From Escherichia coli (GTDB lineage: Bacteria; Pseudomonadota; Gammaproteobacteria; Enterobacterales; Enterobacteriaceae), in assembly GCF_044324875.1 (NCBI RefSeq), contig NZ_CP172187.1: DNA of 64,000 nucleotides; one strand, given 5' to 3'. Below are positions 2,343 through 60,787 of this stretch, in pieces; the stretch's first letter is position 1, and each line of letters starts with the position of its first letter. The translations under genes were made by a program, and so were the position numbers. The notes under the pieces were generated by a model, which was not told where the DNA came from, did no database searches, and worked only from the letters and a program-made list of their open reading frames with translations.

Positions 2343-3284
2343 GTGAGGAGAATTCCCATGCCAAACTGGTGCTCAAATCGTATGTATTTTTCTGGTGAAC
2401 CAGCACAGATCGCTGAGATTAAACGACTGGCCAGCGGTGCAGTCACACCGCTTTATCGCCGCGCCACAGATGAAGGTATTCAGCTGTTTCTGGCCGGTAG
2501 TGCCGGACTTCTGCAGACCACTGAAGATGTGCGGTTTGAACCATGCCCCGGACTGACGGCTGCCGGACGTGGTGTTGTATCGCCGGAGAATATCGCGTTC
2601 ACCCGCTGGCTGACACACCTGCAGAACGGTGTGCTACTGGATGAAAAAAACTGCCTGATGCTGCATGAACTCTGGCTGCAGAGTGGTACTGGCCAGCGTC
2701 GCTGGGAAGGATTACCGGATGAGGTCAGGGAAAGCATCACCGTGCATTTCACCGCCAAAAGAGGTAACTGGTGTGGCTTCTGGAGTAACGAGGATGTATC
2801 GGTGTGGTGGAACCGTCTGTGTGACAATGTACTGCCGGAAAAAACCATGCCGTTTGACCTGCTGACGGTTCTGCCCACCCGCCTGGATGTTGAAGTGAAT
2901 GGCTTTAACGGTGGTGTTCTGAACGGTGTTCCTTCTGCGTATCACTGGTATACGGAACAGTATGGCGTGAAGTGGCCTGTGGGGTATGAGGTGAATATCA
3001 GCAGTCAGGGAGACAACTTCATTCAGGTTGATTTCGACACGCCGTGGTGTCAGCCGGAAAGCGACGTTATTGCAGAATTAAGCCGCCGTTTCAGTTGCAC
3101 ACTGGAGCACTGGTATGCCGAGCAGGGCTGCAATTTCTGTGGCTGGCAGCGATATGAGCGTGGAGAGCTTGTTGATGTCCTGTGGGGGGAATTGGAATGG
3201 TCTTCCCCGACAGATGACGATGAGCTGCCGGAAGTCACCGGACCTGCGTGGATTGTCGACAAGGTGGCGCATTACGGTGGATGA
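2343..3284 (+). CDS. Hypothetical leading-region protein (313 aa; Cys/Trp-rich), function unknown
   Basis: Long ORF immediately downstream of repeat A copy 1; alternative start ATG at 2358 (MPNWCS...). No motif I can assign. Confidence 0.55.
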   Translation: MRRIPMPNWCSNRMYFSGEPAQIAEIKRLASGAVTPLYRRATDEGIQLFLAGSAGLLQTTEDVRFEPCPGLTAAGRGVVSPENIAFTRWLTHLQNGVLLDEKNCLMLHELWLQSGTGQRRWEGLPDEVRESITVHFTAKRGNWCGFWSNEDVSVWWNRLCDNVLPEKTMPFDLLTVLPTRLDVEVNGFNGGVLNGVPSAYHWYTEQYGVKWPVGYEVNISSQGDNFIQVDFDTPWCQPESDVIAELSRRFSCTLEHWYAEQGCNFCGWQRYERGELVDVLWGELEWSSPTDDDELPEVTGPAWIVDKVAHYGG

Positions 3285-3289
3285 ATTCT

Positions 3290-3650
3290 GACGGAGACGG
3301 GCGGGCAACCGCCCGTTTCTTTTCCGACAAAGGATGTCGCCGTGCTCCTCTTTTTACTGCGCCGGCTGACGCGGCGCGGCATAAACGCTGCCTGTGGTCA
3401 GTGTCCCGCGTCCGGCGGGCACGGGACGGGCGCTTTTACCGCTCCCGGCTGGCACCGGTGACAGTGTACGCCAGCCCGTCGCCCTTTTCTGATGAACGCC
3501 CTTCAAGCCGCTTTCGCGGCATAGCCTTGCCGTCAAAAAGACGACGGCTGCGGTATTCCACGGTCGGCCTGACCCGTTACCGGACGCGGTGAACAGCCCA
3601 CAGGCAGCGGGGAACGGGCACCACAGGGGTGCCCTCCCGGTGCCTTCTGT
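3290..3650. repeat. Leading-region repeat family A, copy 2
   Basis: Direct repeat of 1985-2340 with a few substitutions; ends at the RBS (AAGGAGG) of the methyltransferase gene at 3668. Confidence 0.8.
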
Positions 3651-6024: not shown

Positions 6025-6450
6025 ATGCAATATGCGAAACCTGTCACTCTGAATGTTGAAGAGTGCGACCGTCTGTTTTTTCTGCCTTACCTGTTTGGCC
6101 AGGATTTTCTGTATGCCGAGGCATCTGTGTACGCGCTGGCGAAAAAAATGATGCCGGAATATGACGGCGGATTCTGGCACTTCATCCGCCTGCCGGACGG
6201 TGGCGGTTACATGATGCCGGATGGCGACCGTTTTCATCTGGTCAACGGTGAAAACTGGTTTGACCGTACGGTCAGCGCCGATGCCGCAGGCATCATTGTG
6301 ACTTCCCTTGTGATTAACCGTCAGTTGTGGCTGTACCACGACAGCGGTGATGCAGGACTGACTCACCTGTACAGGATGCGCGATGCGCAGTTGTGGAGCC
6401 ACATCGAATTTCACCCCGAATGCAATGCGATTTACGCGGCACTGGACTGA
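6025..6450 (+). CDS. klcA: KlcA/ArdB-family anti-restriction protein
   Basis: 141 aa with family hallmarks FLPYLFG...[16 protein letters not shown]...[11 protein letters not shown], matching my recollection of KlcA/YfjX-type proteins. Confidence 0.8.
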
Positions 6451-6496
6451 TTAACGGACGGGGCGGCAATGCCGCCCCTGTAAAGGAGACGAGAAC

Positions 6497-6919
6497 ATGT
6501 ACTGTACTGTTAAAGAAATTATCCGCGAAGTGCTGGATACAGACGTGCCGGACAGTGAATGCGTTTTTGCCGTGGTGCTGACCCGTGGGGATGTGCGCCA
6601 CATAGCTCAGGACTGGAGTCTGGCAGACGATGAGCTGGAAACCGTCATGCAGCGGCTGGACGATGCCTTTGAGCATGGTGCGGATGTCAGCGTTGTTCAC
6701 GACGTTGTTCGTGAACTGATGGAAGAAAAGCGCGCCAGCCGTCATGTGACAGTCCCGGCGATGATGCTGGAAAAAGTGATGGCGCTGGCAGGCAGTGAAA
6801 TGAAGCGCCTGTATGCCGTCGGAAGTGAGAACGGGGGCGACGGTGACGCATTCGTCAGGGAGGAACGCGAAGCAATGGACGTTGTGTTACAGGCGCTGGA
6901 CGGGGAGACGATGTCATGA
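6497..6919 (+). CDS. Hypothetical acidic protein (140 aa); paralog of ORF 4586..5020
   Basis: Shares the RHVTVPA motif and N-terminal pattern with ORF 4586..5020; RBS AAGGAG upstream. Confidence 0.6.
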   Translation: MYCTVKEIIREVLDTDVPDSECVFAVVLTRGDVRHIAQDWSLADDELETVMQRLDDAFEHGADVSVVHDVVRELMEEKRASRHVTVPAMMLEKVMALAGSEMKRLYAVGSENGGDGDAFVREEREAMDVVLQALDGETMS

Positions 6920-7107: not shown

Positions 7108-7295
7108 TACAGGGGCAGGCGGTGGAGGCCGCCTGTCAGCCCGCGCGAAAACCCCTGGCAGGCTGACGCCTGCCGGAAGGGAAGCGGGCCACGCTGGCGC
7201 GTCGCCCGTTACCCTTCCCGTCTGTGATGTGTCTGACTCAGGAGTGTTTCTTTCTTATGTTGCGGAACTGTTCCTGATGTTGTTGTTGTTCCTTT

Positions 7296-7895
7296 ATCTG
7301 CTGCTCTGATTCTGACTACTGCAGTGTTGTTCTGTCTGCCGGGCGCACCTTCGGCTCCCGGCTGCCTGGCGGCATCCGGTCGTCAGGCCCGACTCCGACA
7401 GGCAGCTGCTGGCGCACCTGCCAGTCTCCGCCGAACCCGCTGGCGCGGCTTCGGGCTGCCGCTACGGTCCGATGCGTGAAAACCCCGGGCTTGCAGCGAC
7501 CGTTCTGGTCGCGCCGCCTCTGTCGCGCCGTGGCCTGCGCTCCAGGCATCCCGGCAAAAAGACGCCGGGATGTAAGGCGCAACGCCGTTTCGCAAACCGC
7601 GCTTCACGTCGTTGCTGCGGGTCCCTGCTCATTGCCTGCCGGGTGCCACACACCCGTATGAGTCCCTGTCGCCGGGGGCATAGACAGCCACAACCTGCCG
7701 CACTGACTGTCCAGGGTAAATGAACAGCCCACAAAATTTTTTACCCAAAACCCGGTAAAAAATTTTGCGTTCTGCCCAGGACAGGTGCGTCAGGCCGTGG
7801 CAGTGATGCCCCTTGCGGCGAAGGTTCTCAAACGGGTGAAGTTCATACCACAGGGAATACAGCAGCAGGTTCCCGCGAAACGTCAAAACCGCGGC
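7296..7895. repeat. Leading-region repeat family B, copy 1 (~600 bp, GC-rich); candidate Frpo/ssi-like single-strand promoter
   Basis: Shares ...CTGATTCTGACTACTGCAGTGTTGTTCTGTCTGCCGGGCGCACCTTCGGCTCCCGGCTGCC... through ...CGCGGCTCCCGAAACTCAAC with copies at 10651-11280 and 18720-19340. Confidence 0.8.
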
Positions 7896-8148
7896 TCCCG
7901 AAACTCAACGGGTGATGTTCTTTAAAAATCAGGATTTATTTCAGGCTCCGGCAATACGCATTTATGTGTTCTGTCAGTCATCCGGCTGGCAGGTAATGAG
8001 AACGCAGGAACAGAAGGAGGAAAACACCGGAGAACGTCAGACGCAGATATGAAAAAAGCAGGCCGGGGAGGACCTGCTTAATCCACACCGCAAAAACTGT
8101 TCGAGCAGTTTCTGCGGTTCCATTCAACAGTCATAAGGAGTTTCATTT

Positions 8149-8379
8149 ATGACGGTAAGTATTGTTTCACCTTCCGCAGCGGCTGTAAAGCCCCGCCGTC
8201 ATCCCCGTTTCAGACGCGAAGACATCCCCGCGCCGGAAATTGACCCCGTGCTGAAAGCCTTCGGGCGACACATAGCCCGGAGTTTTCACCGGGGGCGTGG
8301 TGTACACATCCCCGCCATGAAAAACACGGCCTTCGGGCAGGTGCTCCGCACACTCGAACTGAAACGCGCTTTTAACTGA
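8149..8379 (+). CDS. Hypothetical small basic protein (76 aa)
   Basis: ORF downstream of repeat B copy 1 with RBS AGGAG. Confidence 0.4.
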   Translation: MTVSIVSPSAAAVKPRRHPRFRREDIPAPEIDPVLKAFGRHIARSFHRGRGVHIPAMKNTAFGQVLRTLELKRAFN

Positions 8380-9838: not shown

Positions 9839-10402
9839 ATGCACAGTCAGTTAAGAGAACGTATCCGGCTGATGCGCGCAAGGCTGGATAACGCCGCGCC
9901 GGTTGCTGAAATCCGGGCTGAATCTCAGCTTTTTGTGACTCCTGCCCCGGTCTGTGATCGCCTGGTGACGCTGGCGGAAATCAGCAACCGTGATCACATT
10001 CTGGAACCCTCTGCCGGCACCGGGGCCATACTGCTGGCGATTCGGGATACCGCGCCGGAGGCCATGTGTGATGCGGTGGAGATTAACAGCGGGCTGGTCC
10101 GGTATCTGCGGGAAAATTTTAACGGTGTCAGGGTACAGTGTGGCGACTTCATGGAATGGCAGCCGGTGCAGTATTACAGCCGGATCATTATGAATCCGCC
10201 GTTCAGTCACGGGCAGGATATCCGGCATATCCTGCGGGCTTTTTCCCTGTTGCGTCCGGGGGGCGTTCTGGTTGCCGTCTGTCTCAACGGGCCGCGCCAG
10301 CAGGAGAAGCTGTTACCGTTTTCTGACGTCCGCGAGGAGCTGCCGCGCGGCACGTTTGCTTATACCGATGTCCCGACGATGATTATTCGTTTGCGTGCCT
10401 GA
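9839..10402 (+). CDS. Small SAM-dependent methyltransferase (187 aa); probable second orphan N6-adenine DNA methyltransferase
   Basis: SAM-binding-like LEPSAGTGAILLA followed by IMNPPF (NPPF-type motif IV); too short for a separate target-recognition domain, so substrate is uncertain. Confidence 0.65.
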   Translation: MHSQLRERIRLMRARLDNAAPVAEIRAESQLFVTPAPVCDRLVTLAEISNRDHILEPSAGTGAILLAIRDTAPEAMCDAVEINSGLVRYLRENFNGVRVQCGDFMEWQPVQYYSRIIMNPPFSHGQDIRHILRAFSLLRPGGVLVAVCLNGPRQQEKLLPFSDVREELPRGTFAYTDVPTMIIRLRA

Positions 10403-10581
10403 TGACACAGGGCTGGCGGGAGGATAAATGCCCGTCTGTCCGCGCCGGGAAAAGACCGCGCGCCGGTGGCGCTGAAAGGGGCCGCGCTCACGCGCCGCCC
10501 CTTTCATTACGCGGACGTTCTGATGGGGGCTTCTGTCTTTTCAGACCTGTCATTTGTCTGTTACTGATGATGTTGTTGTTC

Positions 10582-10647
10582 CTGCTACTGCTACTGCTAC
10601 TGCTACTGCTACTGCTACTGCTACTGCTACTGCTACTGCTACTGCTC
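10582..10647. repeat. Hexanucleotide tandem repeat (CTGCTA)x11
   Basis: Eleven perfect units counted directly at the 5' edge of repeat B copy 2; the equivalent position in copies 1 and 3 is not expanded. Confidence 0.9.
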
Positions 10648-10650
10648 TTC

Positions 10651-11280
10651 TTTTTCCTGCTGCTCTGATTCTGACTACTGCAGTGTTGTTCTGTCTGCCG
10701 GGCGCACCTTCGGCTCCCGGCTGCCTGGCGGCATCCGGTCGTCAGGCCCGACTCCGACAGGCAGCTGCTGGCGCACCTGCCAGTCTCCGCCGAACCCGCT
10801 GGCGCGGTTTCGGGCTGCCGCTACGGTCCGATGCGTGAAAACCCGGCTTGCAGCGACCGTTCCGGTCGCGCCGCCCCTGTCGCGCCGTGACCTGCGCTCC
10901 AGGCATCCCGGCAAAAAGACGCCGGGATGTAAGGCGCAACGCCGTTTCGCAAACCGCGCTTCACGTCGTTGCGGCGGGTCCCTGCCCGTTGTTGTGTCCG
11001 GTGCCATTCACCTGTTTAAGCCCCTGTCGCCGGGGGCTGATACAGCCACAACCTGCCGCACTGACTGTCCAGGGTAAATGAACAGCCCACAAAATTTTTT
11101 ACCCAAAACCCGGTAAAAAATTTTGCGTTCTGCCCAGGACAGGTGCGTCAGGCCGTGGCAGTGATGCCCCATGCGGCGAAGGTTCTCAAACAGGTGATGG
11201 TGAATACCGGAGGGAACAAAGAGCAGGTCCCCGCAAAACGTCAAAACCGCGGCTCCCGAAACTCAACAGATGATGGGGGC
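10651..11280. repeat. Leading-region repeat family B, copy 2, directly upstream of ssb
   Basis: Direct sequence identity with copies 1 and 3; the 3' end ...CGAAACTCAACAGATGATGGGGGCTGAAAAC is shared exactly with copy 3. Confidence 0.8.
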
Positions 11281-11308
11281 TGAAAACATCAACAGAAGGA
11301 GACACATC

Positions 11309-11347
11309 ATGGCAGTTCGTGGCATTAACAAGGTCATTCTTGTCGGT
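11309..11347 (+). CDS. ssb: Plasmid single-stranded DNA-binding protein, exon 1 (codons 1-13, MAVRGINKVILVG)
   Basis: ATG with RBS AAGGAG; the 13 codons are the canonical SSB N-terminus; the reading frame is interrupted by GTGCG at 11348. Confidence 0.8.
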
Positions 11348-11960
11348 GTGCGCCGTTGAAGCGCGGTGTTTTATGGAGTGTTGCCTGAAAAGCAACATGG
11401 CTTAGTGGTATAGCCATTGCATACTGTGGTTAGCCTTGCTTGGTAACAGGCTCGGAGATCCTGAAAAGGAGAGGTGAACATAGCATCCACAGAAAAGGGT
11501 GGTGAATATGGAAATCGTTATAAGTATCACCATTCAATGCAAGATGTATATGGATAAACTGGGTTTGTTGAAGTCGAGATCTATGTGGGAAACAGGAAAC
11601 CAATAACGCAGAACGATTGAAGCGTTATTCCCGTACTAGCACAAGAAATCCGTCCGACGTTGATTGTGACCACTCTAACGGGCCAGCTATTGATGAAATA
11701 GTTAAACGATCGAAAGACATCCTAAGTACATCGCATCTCCACACCGTGAAACTACGGGACTACCTAAACTGGATTTATACCCAGCATGGTAGCGGAGTCT
11801 CCATAGTACTCAAGGTCGGCCTGTAATGGGTTCCGGCAGTCCGCATTATACGGAAGCAGCAAAGGTATAAATCAACCGGAAGGAAGATGAAAGCCTCACA
11901 GTGCTGCGGGGAAGGGAGACAGTTGTTAGATACATCAATCTCTAAGAGGAGGGTTAGCCA

Positions 11961-13862
11961 ATGCTGCCTGATGAACTTGAGAAAAGATTAGATGGAATTG
12001 AGGATGCTTCAAAAAAAGGGTATCCAGTACGTAATCTATACAAAATTGCGTGTGAGCCCGGACTGTGGCTGCAAGCCTACGTGAATATACGGGCCAATGC
12101 AGGTGCACTGACTCAAGGTGTATCAACAGATACCATTGATGGCTTTTCTATCGAAAGAGCAGAGAAGCTGGCAAAAACATTGCGGAGTAGAGAATACGTA
12201 GCGAAACCTGTACGCAGAGTTCAGATCCCAAAAAAGGACGGAAAAACCAGACCGCTGGGGATTCCAGGTGGAGACGATAAACTGGCGCAAGAAGTAGCAA
12301 GAATTATTCTGGAAAGGGTTTATGAACCAGTATTCTCTGAACACTCTCATGGATTCAGACCAAAACGTTCGTGTGAAACTGCGCTCAGATCTATTCGTCC
12401 AGTCTGGAACGGAGTTAAATGGATCGTGGATGTTGATATCAAAGGTTTCTTTGACAATATCCCCCACAAACTATTGCTGAATACACTGGCAGAGAAAATT
12501 AAGGATAAGAATTTCCTGAAATTAATCGAACAGTGGCTGAAGGCAGGATATGTGGACAATTGGAAATACCATCGCTCATATTCTGGCACGCCACAAGGTG
12601 GGATAATTTCTCCCTTACTGGCAAATATATACCTCGACAAACTGGACCGTTTTGTAGAACAGAATTTAATTCCTGCATATACAAGCGGTACAAAACGAAG
12701 AGCGAATCCAGATATGAACAGGCTGGCCCATAAGATTCATAAACTACGAAAGAAAGTAGACGGTATGGCAACTGATTCTGAATCAGAAAAAGAAGCCATA
12801 AAGAAAGAAATTGAACGACTGCTTGAAGAAAAACGTTCTATACCATCTCAGGTCATGAACGATCCAAACTTCAGGCGTATGTACTATGTTCGATATGCTG
12901 ATGACTTCGTAATCGGTGTCATCGGCTCGAAGAAAGATGCTGAACATATATCAAGACAGGTCAGAAACTTTATTACTACTTCACTGGGATTGGAAGTTAA
13001 TGAAGCAAAGACCAGGATCCGCCATATCTCAGAAGGAGTTAATTTTTTAGGCTATGAAATCAGACAGGCAGATGCAAAGAAATTGCTGAAGCAGAAAATG
13101 CAAGGGCGGCACGCTCTCCGGAGATCCACCACAGGAATTGTGCAGCTCTTCGTTCCTGACAATATAGCCGCTAAATTTTGTCACCAAAAGAAATATGGCT
13201 GTTATGAGAATGTGAAGGCTGTACATCGTTCAAGTCTACAAAATCTCAGTGAAGCTGAAATTGTTCTGACTTTCAACGCGGAAATGCGCGGATTGGCGAA
13301 CTACTACAGTCTGGCGCTGGACATGAAATATAAATTATCAAAATTATATTTCATATGGCAAATAAGCCTTTTTAAGACCCTGGCGAATAAACGACGTAGT
13401 TCAGTGAATAAAGTCGCCAAATCGCTACGGCAAAATAATGGAGATCTGGCTATTACCGTTCAGGCCAAAAATGGATCCCGAAAGATTGAGGTTTTCAAAC
13501 TCAAACATGTCAATCGCAACCGAACAACGATTGTCGATACGGAACCGAGAACCGCACATATCACAACCCGCACAACAGAGATCATGCGTCGATTAGGGGC
13601 AAGGATCTGCGAGTATTGTGCGAAGACTGGGCGCTGCGAAGTACATCATGTCAGAAAGCTAAAAGACCTGAAGAAAGGTCGTAAGGCCGGATATAAACCC
13701 AGCTTGTGGCAACTAATGATGATCGCACGCCGCCGGAAAACGATGATTTTGTGCGCAAGTTGCCACGACAAGTTACATAGCGGAAAACTACCCGATTTGA
13801 GACAGGAAAAGGGAAGAATACTCCTGCAACCACCTGTCTCAAGCGGGGATTCTGCTAAATGA
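11961..13862 (+). CDS. Group II intron-encoded protein: reverse transcriptase, maturase (X) and HNH endonuclease domains
   Basis: 633 aa with RT motifs (LGIPGGDDKLAQE, SHGFRPKRSCETAL, FFDNIPH, GTPQGGIISPLLANIYL, YVRYADDFVIGV) and a C-terminal Cys/His HNH-like cluster (CEYCAKTGRCEVHHV...CASCHDKLH). Confidence 0.9.
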   Translation: MLPDELEKRLDGIEDASKKGYPVRNLYKIACEPGLWLQAYVNIRANAGALTQGVSTDTIDGFSIERAEKLAKTLRSREYVAKPVRRVQIPKKDGKTRPLGIPGGDDKLAQEVARIILERVYEPVFSEHSHGFRPKRSCETALRSIRPVWNGVKWIVDVDIKGFFDNIPHKLLLNTLAEKIKDKNFLKLIEQWLKAGYVDNWKYHRSYSGTPQGGIISPLLANIYLDKLDRFVEQNLIPAYTSGTKRRANPDMNRLAHKIHKLRKKVDGMATDSESEKEAIKKEIERLLEEKRSIPSQVMNDPNFRRMYYVRYADDFVIGVIGSKKDAEHISRQVRNFITTSLGLEVNEAKTRIRHISEGVNFLGYEIRQADAKKLLKQKMQGRHALRRSTTGIVQLFVPDNIAAKFCHQKKYGCYENVKAVHRSSLQNLSEAEIVLTFNAEMRGLANYYSLALDMKYKLSKLYFIWQISLFKTLANKRRSSVNKVAKSLRQNNGDLAITVQAKNGSRKIEVFKLKHVNRNRTTIVDTEPRTAHITTRTTEIMRRLGARICEYCAKTGRCEVHHVRKLKDLKKGRKAGYKPSLWQLMMIARRRKTMILCASCHDKLHSGKLPDLRQEKGRILLQPPVSSGDSAK

Positions 13863-13888
13863 GTTTATCCCCAATAAGCTAGCAATGG

Positions 13889-13926
13889 AGAGCCGTATGC
13901 ACTGAAAGGTGCACGTACGGTTCGGA
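13889..13926 (+). ncRNA. Group II intron domain V (catalytic hairpin)
   Basis: Matches the conserved domain V consensus as I recall it (GAGCCGUAUGC...GCACGUACGGUUC), about 80 nt from the 3' splice site. Confidence 0.7.
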
Positions 13927-14008
13927 GGGGGGGTAACGGTGATCTAACTCAAGATAAGCAGGACATATTCGCCATTTATCTTGAAAGACCACACGTACCC
14001 TACCCTAC

Positions 14009-14497
14009 CGTCTGGGAAAAGATCCGGAAGTCCGTTACATCCCAAACGGGGGCGCAGTGGCAAACCTGCAGGTGGCCACGTCAGAAAGCTGGCGCGACAA
14101 ACAGACGGGGGAGATACGGGAGCAGACAGAATGGCATCGCGTGGTGCTGTTCGGCAAGCTCGCGGAAGTGGCTGGTGAGTATCTGCGCAAGGGCGCGCAG
14201 GTCTACATCGAAGGTCAGCTTCGCACCCGTAGCTGGGAGGATAACGGTATCACCCGTTACGTCACCGAAATTCTTGTTAAGACCACGGGCACCATGCAGA
14301 TGCTGGGACGTGCCGCAGGTACTCAGACTCAGCCGGAAGAGGCGCAACAGTTCAGCGGTCAGCCTCAGCCGGAATCACAGCCGGAACCGAAAAAAGGAGG
14401 CGCGAAAACGAAAGGCCGTGGACGTAAGGCCGCGCAGCCGGAGCCTCAGCAGCCGTCTGAACCCGCGTATGACTTCGATGACGACATTCCGTTCTAA
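14009..14497 (+). CDS. ssb: Plasmid single-stranded DNA-binding protein, exon 2
   Basis: In frame with ORF 14057..14497 ([19 protein letters not shown]...DDDIPF, acidic SSB tail); upstream in-frame codons [17 protein letters not shown] continue the SSB OB-fold. Confidence 0.8.
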
Positions 14498-18450: not shown

Positions 18451-18719
18451 CAACCTGGAGGCGGGCGCAGGCCCGCCTTTTCAGGACTGATGCTGGTCTG
18501 ACTACTGAAGCGCCTTTATAAAGGGGCTGCTGGTTCGCCGGTAGCCCCTTTCTCCTTGCTGATGTTGTACGGGCATGAACAACCTGACTTCAGGAAGGTC
18601 GTTTCCCTTCAGGAACGGGGATGAACGCGCGCCTGCGGCGCCCGTTCTTTTCCCCCGCCTTCTCTGGTTATGGCCTGTCAGAAATCACATCACCTTCCCT
18701 GTGATTATTCTCTTTTTCT

Positions 18720-19340
18720 TCCTGCTCTGATTCTGACTACTGCAGTGTTGTCCTGTCTGCCGGCGCACCTTCGGCTCCCGGCTGCCTGGCGGCATCCGGT
18801 CGTCAGGCCCGACTCCGACAGGCAGCTGCTGGCGCACCTGCCAGTCTCCGCCGAACCCGCTGGCGCGGTTTCGGGCTGTCGCTACGGTCCGATGCGTGAA
18901 AACCCCGGGCTTGCAGCGACCGTTCCGGTCGCGCCGCCTCTGTCGCGCCGTGGCCTGCGCTCCTGGCATCCCGGCAAAAAGACGCCGGGATGTAAGGCGC
19001 AACGCCGTTTCGCAAACCGCGCTTCACGTCGTTGCTGCGGGTCCCTGCCCGTTGTTGTGTCCGGTGCCATTCACCTGTTTAAGCCCCTGTCGCCGGGGGC
19101 TGATACAGCCACAACCTGCCGCACTGACTGTCCAGGGTAAATGAACAGCCCACAAAATTTTTTACCCAAAACCCGGTAAAAAATTTTGCGTTCTGCCCAG
19201 GACAGGTGCGTCAGGCCGTGGCAGTGATGCCCCATGCGGCGAAGGTTCTCAAACAGGTGATGGTGAATACCGGAGGGAACAAAGAGCAGGTCCCCGCAAA
19301 ACGTCAAAACCGCGGCTCCCGAAACTCAACAGATGATGGG
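18720..19340. repeat. Leading-region repeat family B, copy 3
   Basis: Direct identity with copies 1 and 2; ends about 30 nt upstream of the ATG at 19371. Confidence 0.8.
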
Positions 19341-43614: not shown

Positions 43615-46433
43615 ATGAAGTTTATGTGATTGCCGGTGGTGAGTGGTTGCGGAATAACCTGAATGCCATTGCCGCCTTTATGGGAACCAGAACGTGGGAT
43701 TCCATTGAAAAAATTGCGCTCACATTGTCTGTTCTCGCGGTGGCCGTAATGTGGGTACAGCGGCACAACGTGATGGATTTGCTGGGCTGGGTGGCCGTGT
43801 TTGTGCTTATCAGCCTGCTGGTTAATGTCCGTACATCGGTGCAGATTATTGATAACAGTGACCTGGTCAAAGTTCACCGGGTGGATAATGTGCCGGTCGG
43901 ACTGGCGATGCCACTTTCACTGACGACCCGTATCGGGCATGCAATGGTGGCCAGTTACGAGATGATCTTCACGCAACCGGACAGTGTCACCTACAGCAAA
44001 ACGGGGATGCTGTTTGGCGCAGAACTGGTATCAAAAAGCACCGACTTTTTGTCCCGTAATCCGGAAATCGCCAATCTTTTCCAGGATTATGTGCAGAACT
44101 GCGTGATGGGGGATATTTACCTGAACCACAAATATACGCTGGAGGAGCTGATGGCCTCCGCTGATCCCTACACGCTGATTTTTTCCCGCCCCAGCCCGCT
44201 GCGGGGCGTTTATGACAGCAATAATAATTTCGTAACCTGTAAGGACGCTTCGGTTTCGCTGAAAGACAAGCTGAATCTGGACACACAGAGTGGCGGAAAA
44301 ACCTGGCATTATTATGCCCAGCAGCTATTTGGCGGACGCCCTGATCCTAACCTGCTGTTCAGTACGCTGATTGGCGACAGTTACAGTTACTTCTATGGCT
44401 CAAGTAAATCAGCCAGCCAGATCATCCGCCAGAATGTCACCATCAATGCGCTGAAGGAGGGGATCACCAGTTATGCCGCACGTAATGGTGATTCGGCCAG
44501 CCTGGTGAATCTGGCCACCACGTCATCGATGGAGAAACAACGTCTGGCACATGTATCAATCGGTCATGTGGCGATGCGGACACTGCCCATGACGCAGACC
44601 ATCCTGACGGGGATCGCCATCGGTATTTTCCCGCTCCTGGTACTGGCGGCTGTATTCAACAAACTGACGCTGTCCGTCCTGAAAGGCTATGTGTTTGCCC
44701 TGATGTGGTTGCAGTCATGGCCAATGTTGTACGCCATTCTGAACAGCGCCATGACATTTTATGCAAAGCAGAATGGTGCACCGGTGGTGCTCTCGGAAAT
44801 TTCACAGATACAGCTGAAATACTCCGATCTGGCTTCCACTGCCGGGTATCTTTCCATGATGATCCCGCCATTATCCTGGATGATGGTCAGGGGGCTCGGG
44901 GCAGGATTTTCCAGTGTGTACAGCCATTTCGCTTCCTCTGCTATCAGCCCGACCGCCAGTGCAGCAGGCAGTGTGGTTGACGGTAATTACTCCTACGGCA
45001 ACATGCAGACGGAGAACGTGAACGGCTTCAGCTGGAGCACCAACAGCACCACGTCGTTTGGTCAGATGATGTACCAGACCGGCAGTGGCGCAACTGCCAC
45101 ACAGACCCGTGACGGTAATATGGTGATGGATGCAAGCGGAGCGATGTCCCGGTTACCGGTCGGCATCAATGCAACGCGTCAGATTGCGGCGGCACAACAG
45201 GAAATGGCCCGGGAAGCATCGAACAGAGCAGAAAGTGCCCTGCATGGGTTCAGCAGCAGTATTGCCAGTGCCTGGAACACGCTCAGTCAGTTTGGTTCTA
45301 ACCGGGGGAGCAGTGATTCTGTCACCGGTGGCGCTGACAGTACGATGAGCGCACAGGACTCCATGATGGCCAGCCGTATGCGCAGTGCAGTGGAAAGCTA
45401 TGCGAAGGCGCATAATATCAGTAATGAGCAGGCGACTCAGGAACTGGCATCCAGAAGTACGAGAGCTTCTGCCGGGATGTATGGAGATGCTCATGCTGAA
45501 TGGGGGGTTAAACCTAAAATTCTTGGTGTTGGTGGAGGATTAGGTGTTAAAGGTGGTGGTCGCGCTGGTATTGATTGGGAAGATAATGATGCGCATACGG
45601 CAAGTAGTAATACTCAGTCGAGCCATAATGCTCGTCATGATATCGATGCCAGAGCTACACAAGACTTTAAAGAGGCCAGCGATTACTTTACCAGTCGCAA
45701 GGTCAGTGAGTCCGGCAGCCATACTGACAATAATGCTGATTCCCGTGTGGATCAGTTGTCTGCAGCCCTGAACTCAGCAAAACAGAGTTACGACCAGTTC
45801 ACGACGAATATGACCCGCAGCCATGAATATGCTGAAATGGCATCCCGTACTGAAAGCATGAGTGGGCAGATGAGTGAAGACCTGTCGCAACAGTTTGCAC
45901 AGTATGTGATGAAACACGCGCCGCAGGATGCCGAAGCTATTCTGACAAACACCAGTTCACCGGAGATTGCAGAACGCCGTCGGGCTATGGCGTGGTCTTT
46001 TGTTCAGGAACAGGTGCAGCCTGGTGTTGATAATGCCTGGCGTGAATCCCGTGGGGACATCGGTAAAGGAATGGAGAGCGTACCTTCGGGTGGTGGCAGC
46101 CAGGATATTATTGCTGATCATCAGGGGCATCAGGCCATTATTGAGCAAAGAACGCAGGACAGTAATATCCGTAATGATGTAAAACATCAGGTTGATAATA
46201 TGGTCACAGAATACCGAGGCAATATCGGAGATACTCAGAGCAGCATACGTGGCGAAGAAAATATTGTAGGAAGACAGTATTCTGAACTACAAAATCACCA
46301 TAAAACAGAGGCATTATCTCAGAATAATAAATATAATGAAGAAAAATCGGGTCAGGAAAGAATGCCCGGGGCTGACAGTCCACAGGAACTGATGAAAAGA
46401 GCAAAGGAGTATCAGGATAAGCACAAGCAATAA
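43611..46433 (+). CDS. traG: TraG, mating-pair stabilisation and entry-exclusion determinant
   Basis: 940-aa polytopic membrane protein. Confidence 0.9.
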   Translation: MNEVYVIAGGEWLRNNLNAIAAFMGTRTWDSIEKIALTLSVLAVAVMWVQRHNVMDLLGWVAVFVLISLLVNVRTSVQIIDNSDLVKVHRVDNVPVGLAMPLSLTTRIGHAMVASYEMIFTQPDSVTYSKTGMLFGAELVSKSTDFLSRNPEIANLFQDYVQNCVMGDIYLNHKYTLEELMASADPYTLIFSRPSPLRGVYDSNNNFVTCKDASVSLKDKLNLDTQSGGKTWHYYAQQLFGGRPDPNLLFSTLIGDSYSYFYGSSKSASQIIRQNVTINALKEGITSYAARNGDSASLVNLATTSSMEKQRLAHVSIGHVAMRTLPMTQTILTGIAIGIFPLLVLAAVFNKLTLSVLKGYVFALMWLQSWPMLYAILNSAMTFYAKQNGAPVVLSEISQIQLKYSDLASTAGYLSMMIPPLSWMMVRGLGAGFSSVYSHFASSAISPTASAAGSVVDGNYSYGNMQTENVNGFSWSTNSTTSFGQMMYQTGSGATATQTRDGNMVMDASGAMSRLPVGINATRQIAAAQQEMAREASNRAESALHGFSSSIASAWNTLSQFGSNRGSSDSVTGGADSTMSAQDSMMASRMRSAVESYAKAHNISNEQATQELASRSTRASAGMYGDAHAEWGVKPKILGVGGGLGVKGGGRAGIDWEDNDAHTASSNTQSSHNARHDIDARATQDFKEASDYFTSRKVSESGSHTDNNADSRVDQLSAALNSAKQSYDQFTTNMTRSHEYAEMASRTESMSGQMSEDLSQQFAQYVMKHAPQDAEAILTNTSSPEIAERRRAMAWSFVQEQVQPGVDNAWRESRGDIGKGMESVPSGGGSQDIIADHQGHQAIIEQRTQDSNIRNDVKHQVDNMVTEYRGNIGDTQSSIRGEENIVGRQYSELQNHHKTEALSQNNKYNEEKSGQERMPGADSPQELMKRAKEYQDKHKQ

Positions 46434-49472: not shown

Positions 49473-51119
49473 TCAGTGGTAGTAGCCCGGACCACGCAGG
49501 TTTTCATGCTCTGAAGCATATGCCGGATGTTGTTCGCCCTGGCGGGATAATGGAAGCTCCAGGTTCTCCCGATGGTGACGCAGCAGATTGTCGATAAAGC
49601 GTCTGTCAGGGGCGTTATAGTGCAGGGCAACGTAACAGGCCTTTTCCAGCCGTTCCGGGCCGTATTTTTTCTGAAGTGCCAGCAGCCCCAGAACTGCACG
49701 ATAAGCCAGTTCCGGATGGGGTTTTGCCTTCAGCATGGATTCAACCACCCGGCCTGTGGACGGGCCCGTACGTTTTCCCTGCTCGATCAGGCGTTCCGGT
49801 GTCCATGTCCCGTGCTGCCGGTGGCGCTCTGGCATGTGAAGCGGATTGGTTGTGTGTTTATATTCATGTGTGCTGCGCGGATGTTGCGCCACACACTGCC
49901 CCTTGTGCCAGAGCTGTACCACCGACTGCCCCGCCTTCAGTGACAGACGCTGACCGACCAGTTCGTGTGGAACGGAGTACCAGTGACGGGCATATTCAAC
50001 GTGGTAGTCAGGGCCAACCTTCACAGCTTTGTATTCCGTGTATTCATAAGGTGCCAGAGGCAGCGGAGAGAGTGCTGGCGCATCCAGTATGCGGAAGCGT
50101 TCTGCACGGGTTTGATTGCCGTACCCCTTCATTGGCCGGTTATTCATGTCTGTCAGTAACTCCCTAAGGCGCGCATTCAGCGCCCTGAGCGTGTGGAAGG
50201 TTTCATTACGGATGCGGGCAAGAAGCCATCGTTCAACGATGAGGACGCCGTTTTCTGCTTTTGGTTTATCTTTAGGTTTGCGTGGTCGGGCCGGGATGAT
50301 AACCGTGCCATAGTGCTCAGCCAGTGCCTGATAACTGTCGTTGATGACAGGCTCATATCGATCGGCCTTTTTCACTGCGCTTCTGAGGTTATCGGGGATG
50401 AGCAGCTTCGGTACGCCGCCCAGGAAGGTCAGGCAACGGCTGTGGGCATTTAACCATGACATCATGTCCTGACCTTCGCACGCTTCAACGTAGGTATAGT
50501 TGGACGCCCCCATTACGGCCACGAAGATTGCCACGCGGCGTATCTCACCGGTGTCCGGATTAATAACAGGAACCGTAGGACCACAGAAGTCGATAAAAAG
50601 CTTTTCGCCGGCACGATGCTCCTGGCGCATGGAGAGACGTCGCGTTTTTTTCCACTCCCGGTAGCAACGGCAGAAGTGCGAGTATCCCATCGCTTTGTTA
50701 CCCGCCTGTGCCTTGTATTCCATCCACAACAGTTGCCGCGTCACACCTGGTTTTCTCATTTCCGTATCGAAGTACAACATGTCAGGCATTACAAGCTCTG
50801 ATGCAAAGGTGTCTTTGGGCGGAAAAATGAGTTTCTCCAGCGTGTCATGGGATATATCAGCAGGTAATGGCCATGACAGAGAAGAGGCTTTGAAGCGGGC
50901 AAGAACCTCAAAAACGGTTGAGGCGCTGATGTGTAACGTCAGTCCGATACAACGGTTAGTCAGCTTCTTGTCGAACTTGAGCTGAAGGATCTTAAAACAG
51001 GTTTCCATAGTGCTCCTGGATTTTCTCTTTCTGGACATTGACGTCTCCACTGGTTTAAACACGGCAATGGAGACTGTGGTGAAAAGAGTTAATTCCCGGA
51101 GTGACTGGCAGGATGCCAA
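49473..51119 (-). CDS. istA: IstA-like transposase (start uncertain)
   Basis: 548-aa ORF whose 3' end overlaps istB; HTH-like N-terminus; two-gene arrangement diagnostic of the IS21 family. Confidence 0.75.
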   Translation of the reverse strand: MASCQSLRELTLFTTVSIAVFKPVETSMSRKRKSRSTMETCFKILQLKFDKKLTNRCIGLTLHISASTVFEVLARFKASSLSWPLPADISHDTLEKLIFPPKDTFASELVMPDMLYFDTEMRKPGVTRQLLWMEYKAQAGNKAMGYSHFCRCYREWKKTRRLSMRQEHRAGEKLFIDFCGPTVPVINPDTGEIRRVAIFVAVMGASNYTYVEACEGQDMMSWLNAHSRCLTFLGGVPKLLIPDNLRSAVKKADRYEPVINDSYQALAEHYGTVIIPARPRKPKDKPKAENGVLIVERWLLARIRNETFHTLRALNARLRELLTDMNNRPMKGYGNQTRAERFRILDAPALSPLPLAPYEYTEYKAVKVGPDYHVEYARHWYSVPHELVGQRLSLKAGQSVVQLWHKGQCVAQHPRSTHEYKHTTNPLHMPERHRQHGTWTPERLIEQGKRTGPSTGRVVESMLKAKPHPELAYRAVLGLLALQKKYGPERLEKACYVALHYNAPDRRFIDNLLRHHRENLELPLSRQGEQHPAYASEHENLRGPGYYH

Positions 51120-51347
51120 TCAATGATCGGAAGCATGCCAAATCGTGATCGATTGTGATGCCAAACTGTGATCGGAGATGGATGCCAAATCATGATCGAT
51201 TCGAATGCCAAACTGCGATCGATTCAGATGCCATTTTGCAGCAGGCGGGTATCACCACCGGCATACAGGGTACACCTGGTCTGTTTCTGTGAATTAACCC
51301 CACATCATCCTTTTCTGCCCTGTTCCAGATTTTCCCGGAGTTTCATC

Positions 51348-53546
51348 ATGAGTTTTAACGCAAAGGATATGACCCAGGGCGGTCAGATTGCGTCCATGCG
51401 TATCCGCATGTTCAGCCAGATCGCCAATATCATGCTTTACTGCCTGTTTATTTTTTTCTGGATACTCGTTGGTCTGGTTTTATGGGTAAAAATAAGCTGG
51501 CAGACGTTTGTGAACGGCTGTATTTACTGGTGGTGTACCACGCTGGAAGGCATGCGGGATTTAATCAAGTCCCAGCCAGTATATGAGATTCAGTATTACG
51601 GCAAAACCTTCCGGATGAACGCTGCCCAGGTACTGCATGATAAATATATGATCTGGTGCGGTGAGCAGCTATGGTCCGCATTCGTTCTGGCGTCTGTCGT
51701 GGCCCTGGTTATTTGCCTGATCACCTTCTTTGTTGTCTCCTGGATTCTGGGGCGTCAGGGTAAACAACAGAGCGAAAATGAAGTCACAGGTGGTCGTCAG
51801 CTGACAGACAATCCGAAAGACGTTGCCCGGATGCTGAAAAAAGACGGCAAGGACTCCGATATCCGGATTGGCGACCTGCCGATTATCCGGGATTCCGAAA
51901 TCCAGAACTTCTGTCTGCACGGCACGGTCGGGGCCGGTAAGTCGGAGGTTATCCGTCGTCTGGCCAACTACGCCCGTCAGCGCGGTGATATGGTGGTGAT
52001 TTATGACCGTTCAGGGGAATTTGTTAAAAGTTACTATGATCCCTCCATCGATAAAATCCTGAATCCGCTGGATGCCCGCTGTGCCGCATGGGATTTGTGG
52101 AAGGAGTGCCTGACACAGCCGGATTTTGATAATACCGCAAATACTCTGATCCCTATGGGTACAAAAGAGGACCCGTTCTGGCAGGGTTCAGGACGTACCA
52201 TTTTTGCGGAAGCGGCGTACCTGATGCGTAATGACCCCAACCGCAGCTACAGCAAACTGGTGGACACACTGCTTTCCATCAAAATTGAAAAACTGCGTAC
52301 CTTCCTGCGTAATTCACCGGCAGCCAACCTGGTGGAAGAGAAAATTGAGAAAACGGCGATTTCCATCCGTGCTGTGCTGACCAACTACGTGAAAGCCATC
52401 CGTTACCTGCAGGGGATTGAGCATAACGGTGAGTCTTTTACCATCCGTGACTGGATGCGTGGTGTCCGGGAAGATCAGAAAAACGGCTGGCTGTTTATCT
52501 CGTCGAATGCCGACACCCATGCCTCCCTGAAGCCGGTGATCTCCATGTGGCTGTCCATTGCCATTCGTGGTCTGCTGGCAATGGGAGAAAACCGTAACCG
52601 TCGTGTGTGGTTTTTCTGTGACGAGTTACCCACGTTACACAAACTGCCGGACCTGGTGGAGATCCTGCCGGAAGCCCGTAAGTTCGGAGGCTGTTATGTG
52701 TTTGGTATCCAGTCCTATGCCCAGCTGGAAGATATCTACGGTGAGAAAGCGGCGGCCACGCTGTTTGACGTCATGAACACCCGTGCTTTTTTCCGTTCCC
52801 CGAGCCATAAGATTGCAGAGTTCGCTGCCGGTGAGATTGGTGAGAAAGAGCACCTGAAAGCCAGCGAGCAGTATTCCTACGGTGCTGACCCGGTACGTGA
52901 CGGGGTATCGACCGGTAAGGATATGGAGCGTCAGACACTGGTCAGTTATTCCGACATTCAGTCTCTGCCGGATCTGACCTGCTATGTCACTCTGCCCGGA
53001 CCGTATCCGGCAGTAAAACTCTCCCTGAAATATCAGGCACGACCGAAGGTCGCTCCGGAGTTTATTCCGCGTGACATCAACCCGGAAATGGAGAACCGTC
53101 TGAGTGCCGTACTTGCTGCAAGGGAAGCAGAAGGTCGCCAGATGGCCAGCCTCTTCGAACCGGAGGTTGCCTCCGGAGAAGGCGTGACTCAGGCTGAACA
53201 GCCACAACAGCCACAACAGCCACAACAGCCACAACAGCCACAACAGCCACAACAGCCACAACAGCCAGTGTCTTCTGTCATGAATGATAAGAAGTCAGAT
53301 GCAGGTGTGAGTGTTCCGGCAGGGGGGATCGAGCAGGAGCTGAAAATGAAACCGGAAGAAGAGATGGAACAGCAACTGCCACCCGGGATCAGTGAATCCG
53401 GTGAAGTGGTGGATATGGCCGCTTATGAGGCATGGCAACAGGAAAATCATCCGGACATCCAGCAGCAGATGCAGCGTCGTGAAGAGGTGAACATTAATGT
53501 GCACCGGGAGCGCGGGGAGGATGTTGAGCCGGGAGATGATTTCTGA
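51348..53546 (+). CDS. traD: TraD, type IV coupling protein
   Basis: ORF-track frame 51168..53546; true start [22 protein letters not shown] at 51348; Walker A GTVGAGKS; matches F TraD from memory. Confidence 0.95.
53199..53261 (+). repeat. 9-bp tandem repeat (CAGCCACAA)x7 encoding the TraD C-terminal (QQP)n tract
   Basis: Counted directly in the sequence. Confidence 0.9.
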
Positions 53547-56500
53547 TGTTGAGTTTTAGCGTTGTTAAATCGGCAGGCAGTGCCGGAAACTATTACACCG
53601 ACAAGGATAATTACTATGTGCTGGGTAGCATGGGAGAACGCTGGGCCGGTCAGGGGGCTGAACAGCTTGGGCTGCAGGGCAGCGTCGATAAGGATGTTTT
53701 TACCCGTCTTCTGGAGGGCAGGCTGCCGGACGGGGCGGATTTAAGCCGCATGCAGGATGGCAGTAATAAGCATCGTCCCGGCTACGACCTGACCTTCTCC
53801 GCCCCCAAAAGTGTCTCCATGATGGCCATGCTCGGGGGGGATAAACGTCTTATTGATGCACATAACCAGGCTGTGGATTTTGCTGTCCGTCAGGTGGAGG
53901 CGCTGGCTTCCACACGGGTGATGACGGACGGACAGTCAGAAACGGTGCTGACCGGTAATCTGGTGATGGCACTGTTTAACCATGACACCAGTCGCGATCA
54001 GGACCCACAGTTACACACGCATGTGGTGGTGGCTAATGTCACGCAGCATAACGGCGAGTGGAAGACACTGAGCAGTGACAAAGTGGGGAAAACCGGATTT
54101 TCCGAGAACGTGCTCGCGAACCGGATTGCGTTCGGGAAAATATATCAGAGTGAGTTACGTCAGCGCGTTGAGGCGCTGGGTTATGAAACCGAAGTGGTCG
54201 GTAAGCACGGTATGTGGGAGATGCCGGGCGTACCGGTGGAGGCCTTTTCCGGACGCTCACAGGCTATCCGGGAGGCCGTCGGGGAAGATGCCTCGCTGAA
54301 ATCCCGGGATGTGGCGGCACTGGATACGCGAAAATCCAAACAGCACGTCGATCCGGAAATCAGAATGGCTGAATGGATGCAGACGCTGAAGGAAACCGGG
54401 TTCGACATCCGGGCATATCGTGACGCGGCGGATCAGCGTGCGGAGACCCGCACGCAGGCGCCCGGGGCTGTTTCACAGGAGGGGCCGGATGTGCAGCAGG
54501 CGGTGACACAGGCCATTGCCGGATTAAGTGAACGAAAAGTGCAGTTCACGTATACGGACGTGCTGGCCAGGACGGTCGGCATACTGCCGCCGGAAAATGG
54601 TGTGATTGAACGGGCACGCGCCGGTATCGATGAGGCCATCAGCCGTGAGCAGCTTGTCCCCCTCGATCGTGAGAAGGGGCTGTTCACGTCCGGGATTCAT
54701 GTGCTCGATGAGCTGTCAGTCCGGGCACTCAGTCGTGACATCATGAAACAGAACCGGGTGACCGTACATCCGGAGAAAAGTGTCCCCCGGACGGCCGGTT
54801 ACAGCGATGCCGTCAGTGTTCTGGCACAGGATCGCCCGTCGCTGGCCATTGTGTCCGGGCAGGGCGGTGCAGCCGGGCAGCGTGAGCGGGTGGCTGAACT
54901 GGTCATGATGGCCCGGGAGCAGGGGCGGGAGGTGCAGATTATCGCTGCTGACCGTCGCTCGCAGATGAACCTGAAGCAGGATGAACGGCTGTCCGGTGAG
55001 CTGATAACCGGACGTCGTCAGCTGCAGGAGGGCATGGTCTTCACGCCGGGCAGTACCGTTATCGTTGACCAGGGCGAAAAACTCTCCCTGAAAGAGACGT
55101 TAACCCTGCTGGACGGTGCCGCACGTCATAACGTACAGGTCCTGATAACCGACAGCGGGCAGCGAACCGGTACAGGCAGTGCGCTGATGGCCATGAAGGA
55201 TGCCGGGGTGAACACGTATCGCTGGCAGGGCGGAGAACAGCGACCGGCCACCATCATCAGTGAACCGGACCGGAATGTCCGCTATGACCGGCTGGCCGGA
55301 GATTTTGCGGCCAGCGTGAAAGCCGGAGAAGAGAGCGTGGCACAGGTCAGCGGGGTACGGGAACAGGCCATACTGACACAGGCCATTCGCAGTGAGCTGA
55401 AAACACAGGGCGTGCTCGGACACCCGGAGGTGACCATGACCGCCCTGTCACCGGTCTGGCTGGACAGCCGGAGCCGTTATCTGCGGGATATGTACCGACC
55501 GGGGATGGTGATGGAGCAGTGGAACCCGGAGACACGCAGTCATGACCGCTATGTTATCGACCGGGTGACGGCGCAGAGTCACAGCCTGACCCTGCGGGAT
55601 GCGCAGGGCGAAACGCAGGTGGTGCGTATTTCCTCCCTGGACAGCAGCTGGTCGCTGTTCCGGCCGGAAAAAATGCCGGTGGCAGACGGCGAGCGACTGA
55701 GGGTGACAGGGAAAATTCCCGGACTCCGCGTCTCCGGCGGTGACCGCCTGCAGGTGGCATCCGTCAGTGAAGATGCGATGACGGTTGTTGTGCCGGGGCG
55801 GGCTGAACCGGCCACCCTGCCTGTGGCTGATTCACCGTTCACGGCACTGAAGCTGGAGAACGGCTGGGTGGAAACGCCCGGGCATTCCGTCAGCGACAGT
55901 GCGAAGGTTTTTGCCTCCGTCACACAGATGGCAATGGACAACGCCACCCTGAACGGTCTGGCCCGCAGTGGTCGTGATGTCCGGCTGTATTCTTCACTGG
56001 ATGAAACCCGTACTGCGGAAAAACTTGCCCGCCATCCCTCCTTTACGGTGGTTTCTGAGCAGATAAAGGCGCGTGCCGGTGAGACATTGCTGGAAACCGC
56101 TATCAGTCTGCAGAAAGCCGGGCTTCACACGCCGGCACAGCAGGCTATTCATCTGGCCCTTCCTGTGCTGGAAAGTAAAAACCTGGCCTTCAGCATGGTG
56201 GACCTGCTGACAGAGGCGAAGTCGTTTGCTGCAGAAGGAACCAGTTTTACTGAACTGGGAGGGGAAATCAATGCGCAGATAAAACGCGGTGATTTACTGT
56301 ATGTGGATGTGGCAAAAGGCTATGGCACAGGCCTGCTGGTTTCCCGTGCGTCGTATGAGGCAGAAAAGAGCATTCTTCGCCATATTCTCGAAGGTAAGGA
56401 GGCGGTCACGCCGCTGATGGAGAGAGTACCTGGCGAACTCATGGAGAAACTGACATCAGGACAGCGTGCCGCCACCCGCATGATACTGGAAACGTCCGAC

Positions 56501-60327: not shown

Positions 60328-60540
60328 ATGAATGGATTCAGAAACAGTTCACGGAACGGTCAGGTCTGGCGCTGGCAGCGTGCCGGAAGCCGGGCCGTTA
60401 TTCTGGAGGTCAGTGGACGCTGGATGGAAGCGGCAGAAGCATGGCGACGGGCTGCCGGTGTTGCACCCCGGACAGACTGGCAGCAGTTTGCCCGAAAAAG
60501 GGCTGAACAATGCCACCGACGCTGCCGGGGAAGGGTGTAA
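60328..60540 (+). CDS. Hypothetical small Arg/Trp-rich protein
   Basis: Short ORF; could be spurious. Confidence 0.3.
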   Translation: MNGFRNSSRNGQVWRWQRAGSRAVILEVSGRWMEAAEAWRRAAGVAPRTDWQQFARKRAEQCHRRCRGRV

Positions 60541-60787
60541 CGAAAAAGCAGCCTTCATTACTCCAGGGATTCAGAAGGCTGAATAATGCATGAGATTTGC
60601 TTTTTTTAATATCCGGTCGGGCAGTATGACCGGACAGTTCTGAGTAGCACAGAGTTTTTTCCGTATTAAGTCGTGATTTTATATTTTGTGATTAATTTCG
60701 CAAAATAAGGTGTTATTCAGTGTGTGCTGCGATATTCAGGATTACCTGAAATACAGGTGCCATTTATCTGATATGGAGAATAATATG

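Follow-up and report, generated by a model that had tools for sequence, protein, structure and literature searches.

A hexanucleotide microsatellite beside an Frpo-like element in an IncF plasmid leading region is the positional ortholog of the MLVA locus VNTR-37

The CTGCTA tract at positions 10582-10647 of the window, by which we mean the whole 64,000-nt stretch of Escherichia coli DNA analysed here, is the positional ortholog of VNTR-37 (= O157-37), an already known MLVA marker of plasmid pO157. We regard it as very probably a neutral or nearly neutral hypermutable microsatellite, namely the VNTR-37 locus, set in a non-coding, pyrimidine-rich spacer between a methyltransferase gene and an Frpo single-stranded-DNA promoter element.

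The leading region of an IncF plasmid makes up the window. Directly upstream of the tract, on the plus strand, lies a class I SAM-dependent methyltransferase gene (9839-10402), recognized from its ORF and from the annotation of its homolog in two related loci (L001 and pO157, L002). The gene order in an annotated relative runs from an antirestriction protein through DUF1380, a small ORF, repeat copy 1, DUF4496, DUF3560 and the methyltransferase to the tract, and continues with repeat copy 2, ssb, DUF905, a ParB-like gene, psiB, hok/sok and repeat copy 3; beyond copy 3, the window carries traJ and the tra genes. ORF and sequence analysis places the first exon of ssb at 11310-11348 (plus strand), and the gene is split after codon 13 by a group II intron (window 11310-14060) that begins at 11349 with GTGCG, contains a reverse-transcriptase/maturase ORF at 11961-13862 and matches Rfam RF00029 (domain V/VI) at 13888-14008. 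Some related records (L018, L019) label ssb at this place as a 'frameshifted' pseudogene. A 1.3-kb stretch around the tract matches at least 5,000 plasmid records, which among the matches listed are mostly plasmids of Escherichia, Klebsiella, Salmonella and Shigella, most of them typed conjugative. Rfam families in the window include four antisense RNAs originally reported from plasmid pHK01 (AS-pc01, AS-pc02, AS-traG and AS-traI, at 8053-8154, 60437-60620, 44330-44415 and 56395-56471), as well as two sok copies, the FinP/traJ 5' UTR and CopA, a set that fits a backbone of the IncFII type. The leading/maintenance region farther upstream contains two 300-nt direct repeats (1971-2270 and 3276-3575), which are 97% identical and lie 1305 nt apart.

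Direct reading shows that the array described in the initial annotation as (CTGCTA)11 is real but was credited with one base too many, as 10582-10647 consists of (CTGCTA)10 and a degenerate eleventh unit, CTGCTC. Tandem Repeats Finder reports it at 10582-10646 with period 6, 10.8 copies, 100% matches and a score of 130. A perfect array of 65 nt is far beyond chance, and only one other array in the window, at 53197-53267, is comparable. That array, (AACAGCCAC)x7.9, is likewise perfect and falls within an ORF of 792 aa (51168-53546); it probably represents the Gln-Gln-Pro repeat of TraD and is likely to vary in length as well. At 51111-51233, in the region where the same ORF starts, there is an imperfect tandem repeat of 23/47 nt with 73-81% matches. 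Neither strand of the CTGCTA tract has intrinsic structure relative to shuffled sequences (z = 0.26 and -0.91), and a hairpin or slipped structure within it was therefore rejected.

The orthology with VNTR-37 shows in the position of the array, its unit and its left flank. In pO157 of E. coli O157:H7, six CTGCTA units (period 6 and 6.3 copies by Tandem Repeats Finder) lie between the methyltransferase gene and ssb, just as in the window. The published VNTR-37 primers, GCCGCCCCTTACATTACGCGGACATTC and GCAGGAGAACAACAAAACAGACAGTAATCAGAGCAGC (PMC3321953, appendix table), both match pO157 exactly, at 2525-2551 (plus) and 2666-2702 (minus) of L002, and thereby bracket the array; the repeat length given for VNTR-37 is likewise 6 bp (PMC3321953, Table 1). 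Window and pO157 share the unit CTGCTA (TGCTAC as reported by Tandem Repeats Finder), the setting on an IncF backbone with the class I SAM methyltransferase gene on one side and Frpo/ssb on the other (also seen in L001), whole-unit copy-number polymorphism and a near-identical left flank that includes the forward primer site, matched at 25 of 27 bases at 10494-10520 (plus strand) of the window. The reverse primer, in contrast, has no match in the window at up to three mismatches, because the Frpo 5' segment that forms the right flank of the window is of another variant; pO157 and F share the one that the window lacks. Consequently, a PulseNet-type PCR would give a null allele on this plasmid, and the locus is orthologous by position while not being amplifiable as such. 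The two plasmids also differ in type: the pO157 record is classed as non-mobilizable, and the window comes from an IncF plasmid of conjugative type that has a complete tra region. VNTR-37 is in routine use for O157 subtyping, and the locus reportedly goes back to Keys et al. (2005) and Hyytia-Trees et al. (2006). Literature searches with the CTGCTA repeat sequence itself returned unrelated papers only.

The repeat number varies widely. With the terminal CTGCTC counted as a unit, we read 20 alleles, from 19 fetched homologous loci and the window, and obtained 1, 1, 3, 5, 5, 6, 6, 6, 7, 7, 7, 8, 8, 9, 10, 11, 11, 14, 15 and 16 units. The array is uninterrupted in 19 of these 20 alleles; the exception, plasmid pAA of E. 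coli 042 (L018, NC_017627.1), carries the compound array (CTGCTC)7(CTGCTA)6, in which the variant unit has itself expanded. Single-unit alleles (GTTCCTGCTACTGTTC) occur in L011 and L020. Five plasmids with identical flanks (150 nt on the left and 120 nt on the right) have 5, 6, 7, 10 and 15 units, which means that the array changes much faster than substitutions accumulate in the flanks. When complete E. coli genomes were queried with the flanks only, 1,483 of 5,426 contained a site at which at least 80% of the query is covered, and the spans in 19 further sampled E. coli plasmids correspond to roughly 1-16 units. The published record for pO157 agrees with this picture: 202 German O157 isolates had 3-17 repeats in 11 alleles, with a diversity index of 0.82 (PMC3321953), and serial passage over a total of ~211,500 generations yielded two whole-unit changes at O157-37, with a reported rate of 8.5e-5 per generation (PMC3777172). 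Thus, the comparison of related plasmids proposed in the initial annotation shows a repeat number that is not invariant, either in our 20 alleles (1-16 units) or in the literature (3-17), and the more modest reading offered there, that the tract may just mark replication slippage, is borne out by the variation in unit number among related plasmids (PMC3321953, PMC3777172). The probability that an error of sequencing or assembly created the tract is practically negligible. We found nothing in favour of this explanation beyond the general risk that short reads lead to mis-assembly of perfect short repeats. The array appears with differing unit numbers in complete plasmid records that run into the thousands and come from many laboratories, its 65 bp are shorter than any modern read, and published studies have sized PCR fragments of the locus and sequenced it (PMC3321953, PMC3768571, PMC3777172).

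The tract adjoins the second of three repeat-B copies, which we confirm at 7284-7784, 10643-11141 and 18704-19204. Copy 2 (plus strand) has a 3' part that runs on to 11337, and window positions 10839-11337 are 94.6% identical by BLAST to positions 6175-6672 of the F plasmid (L017), directly upstream of ssb. This F segment was named Frpo2 by Couturier et al., and ssb has been shown to depend on it when expressed early from the single strand that enters (PMC9849209); promoters of the same class as Frpo2 are the subject of Samuel et al. (PMC11541004). On the strength of this identity, repeat-B is the Frpo single-stranded-DNA promoter element. As ssb and psiB lie on the plus strand, the transferred strand (T-strand) is the minus strand here, and we folded it over 10480-11320. 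The predicted main stem-loop, the Frpo hairpin, spans about 10946-11262 on the minus strand (z = -10.6 versus shuffles), its apex is the AAAATTTTTTACC...GGTAAAAAATTTT palindrome, and smaller hairpins form in 10660-10945. A putative -35 element (TGGACA, 11066-11071) and a putative -10 element (TATCAG, 11037-11042) would lie in the 3' arm of the hairpin. Among the Frpo/ssi promoters, which work on single-stranded DNA in IncF and IncI leading regions, are those reportedly described by Masai and Arai in 1997 and the Frpo1 and Frpo2 of Couturier et al. (2023). Compared with these, the repeat-B copy adjoining the tract is an Frpo homolog with a strongly stable T-strand stem-loop, whereas neither the hairpin nor the segment shared with F Frpo2 includes the tract itself, which is thus the promoter's neighbour rather than a part of it.

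A three-way alignment of the repeat-B copies bears out the claim of the initial annotation that only one of them, the ssb-proximal copy 2, carries the array. At the corresponding site, copies 1 and 3 show no more than runs of GTT/CTG/CTT and read ...CTGATGTTGTTGTTGTTCCTTTATCTGCTGCTCTGA and ...TTATTCTCTTTTTCTTCCTGCTCTGA, respectively. The placement of the array at the 5' edge of repeat-B holds for the highly conserved part of the repeat, but a weaker homology between copies 1 and 2 runs across the array and further leftward, up to a GC-rich hairpin (10476-10506 in copy 2). Since the homology continues to the left, the array lies inside the fast-evolving 5' part of the repeat and not strictly outside it.

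From its location, the tract had been proposed to act as a length-variable spacer next to a putative promoter that modulates expression of ssb and its intron. Stated in terms of Frpo, the tract length would set the distance or geometry between an upstream element and Frpo and so modulate early ssb (and intron) expression. The tract does lie upstream of the Frpo-like element preceding ssb, and its length is highly variable; however, the anatomy of the region argues against this role, and we consider it highly improbable. In the centroid of the T-strand fold, the tract is unpaired, ~300 nt from the predicted base of the Frpo hairpin, and it lies ~190 nt beyond the segment homologous to F Frpo2. 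It is neither between nor beside the -35 and -10 elements, and it does not separate a regulator site from a promoter. Nor does it belong to the T-strand stem-loop that would rebuild the -35 and -10 elements, given that it is unpaired, unstructured and absent from F Frpo2, which is functional without a CTGCTA array and has been shown experimentally to drive ssb (PMC9849209). The alleles are continuous over 1-16 units with no preferred lengths in our sample, and no sigma-70-like promoter was found in 10300-11400. The geometry of the tract is not that of known repeat-controlled promoters. A double-stranded-DNA promoter or an intrinsic terminator at the tract was likewise rejected, with no promoter-like site there and with terminator-like matches that are weak and lie elsewhere. 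An array of DnaG priming sites was dismissed by reasoning, as CTG occurs on the strand that is not transferred, the T-strand sequence being (TAGCAG)n.

Two plus-strand ORFs overlap the tract, and both look spurious and are probably artefacts of low-complexity sequence. The first is an 88-aa poly-Leu ORF (10402-10668), called a 'hypothetical protein' in homologs; the second is a 94-aa ORF with a TTG start (10554-10838), in which the tract reads (Ala-Thr)n and which runs into the Frpo repeat. PGAP annotates both of them in many records, and neither has a Pfam match. In the pO157, F and pAA records, the annotation instead places ORFs on the minus strand of this DNA and gives one of them the name 'pilus protein'. 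In the window, where we examined all frames of both strands, the minus strand has no ORF across the tract that reaches 30 aa. The pAA 'pilus protein' is a minus-strand pseudogene in RefSeq whose translation is poly-Ser/Arg-Ser low-complexity sequence. A coding role for the plus-strand ORFs was rejected on their poor conservation and on the Pfam result. One could still imagine that the tract encodes a variable poly-leucine transmembrane segment of a real 88-aa protein, translationally coupled to the methyltransferase. The ORF at 10402-10668 is open in the window, and there and in some relatives its start codon shares bases with the stop of the methyltransferase gene (TGATG), as is typical of translationally coupled genes; copy 1 is open in the equivalent frame to the same stop codon, and 6-bp steps preserve the frame. 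This last property, however, keeps every frame open by construction, so that the persistence of an ORF here is uninformative. Conservation argues against such a protein, as the start is lost or the frame broken in 10 of the 20 plasmids: the ATG has become TGAAG in L004 and L011, loss of a single nucleotide puts the N-terminal part out of frame in L003, L007, L009, L010, L013, L014 and L016, and L020, annotated as frameshifted, is apparently also broken. In the plasmids with a broken frame, annotators choose another ATG or call the ORF frameshifted. The variable sites in the poly-Leu ORF number 8, 11 and 6 at codon positions 1, 2 and 3, with no third-position excess, and over the 180 nt upstream of the tract eight of the nine differences between the window and pO157 are non-synonymous (manual count). 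A range of 2 to ~32 leucines is, moreover, incompatible with one defined transmembrane helix, and the existence of this protein is in our judgement highly unlikely.

The DNA surrounding the array is itself of unusual composition. Downstream of the methyltransferase stop codon, sequence and alignment reveal a GC-rich inverted repeat, AAAGGGGCCGCG-CTCA-CGCGCCGCCCCTTTC (10476-10506), which is paired in the T-strand fold. The tract is embedded in a pyrimidine-rich, A-poor, low-complexity spacer made of ATG/GTT/CTG/CTT triplet runs (10541-10700, plus strand), with a purine fraction of 0.33 at copy 2, in the lowest 0.2% of 145-nt windows. A similar A-poor, pyrimidine-rich segment of ~145 nt lies at the 5' edge of all three Frpo-like copies (7160-7345, 10515-10705 and 18580-18765), with purine fractions of 0.32-0.35, in the lowest 0.1-0.5% of all windows; a GC-rich inverted repeat precedes each of these segments, and hairpins similar to the one at 10476-10506 are found ahead of copies 1 and 3. 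The F plasmid (NC_002483.1; L017 6016-6062) has a different microsatellite, (TTC/CTC)n, at the matching site upstream of Frpo2. F is without the whole DUF4496-DUF3560-methyltransferase module and without one Frpo copy, and an anchor search for the VNTR flanks found them absent from F.

This shared composition leaves room for a compositional or spacing role of the whole spacer. With the tract as its expandable core, the spacer might be a functional insulator, either as DNA, where a purine-rich, unstructured T-strand would prevent interference between the Frpo hairpin and the hairpin upstream of it, or as RNA, where an unstructured segment with more C than G would load Rho and stop read-through from the methyltransferase operon into ssb. 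In addition to the pyrimidine-rich edges of the three Frpo copies and the pyrimidine microsatellite of F, the lack of structure in the tract and its C:G ratio of 2:1, with regularly spaced C residues, would fit such a function. The argument is, however, one of composition purely, and repeated slippage alone also yields low-complexity sequence; the copy 1 segment has roughly as much C as G, so that a rut-like composition is not common to the copies, and plasmids with a single unit exist (L011, L020). We rate an insulator as very unlikely. The fuller proposal, in which an SSB-coated T-strand spacer or a Rho-loading RNA insulates and the VNTR length may tune how far ssb-psiB is uncoupled from the anti-restriction/methyltransferase operon, we hold to be very unlikely.

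The reading that we prefer, a neutral or nearly neutral microsatellite, would account for the tract as follows. The perfect 6-bp array may have arisen within an already repeat-prone, pyrimidine-rich spacer, with the single-unit alleles representing its seed. During DNA synthesis, the 6-bp units would misalign by slipped-strand mispairing, and whole units would be gained or lost at a rate far above that of point substitution. Slippage is the probable mechanism by analogy, being established for bacterial VNTRs (PMC3777172). The site is generally slippage-prone, as seen from a neighbouring ATG/GTT triplet indel among plasmids (GATGATG versus GATG), the expansion of CTGCTC in pAA and the unrelated microsatellite of F at the same place. 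Since the unit is 6 bp, length changes cause no frame shift, and since the tract lies outside the promoter hairpin, its length should have no switch-like consequence; the anatomy thus suggests that length is neutral. In contingency loci of Neisseria, Haemophilus and Campylobacter, repeat-length changes shift a reading frame, with a unit that is not a multiple of 3, or alter the -35/-10 spacing. The tract resembles these loci in being a perfect short tandem repeat with frequent length change by slippage, but its unit is 6 bp and hence not frame-shifting, there is no constrained ORF around it, and it lies hundreds of bases from the promoter elements. Weighing against full neutrality are the persistence of the tract in many diverged IncF lineages, the pyrimidine-rich edge of all three Frpo copies and the TGATG start/stop overlap in the window and some relatives.

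For the biology of these plasmids, the tract would be important only if the unit number affects early leading-region expression, and the anatomy argues against this. For annotation, the 'hypothetical protein' and 'pilus protein' ORFs over the tract can be flagged as probable low-complexity artefacts. As a marker, the tract is ready-made and hypervariable, with a flank-query match in about a quarter of complete E. coli genomes, and it could separate otherwise identical IncF plasmids in outbreak and transmission studies, as VNTR-37 does for pO157.
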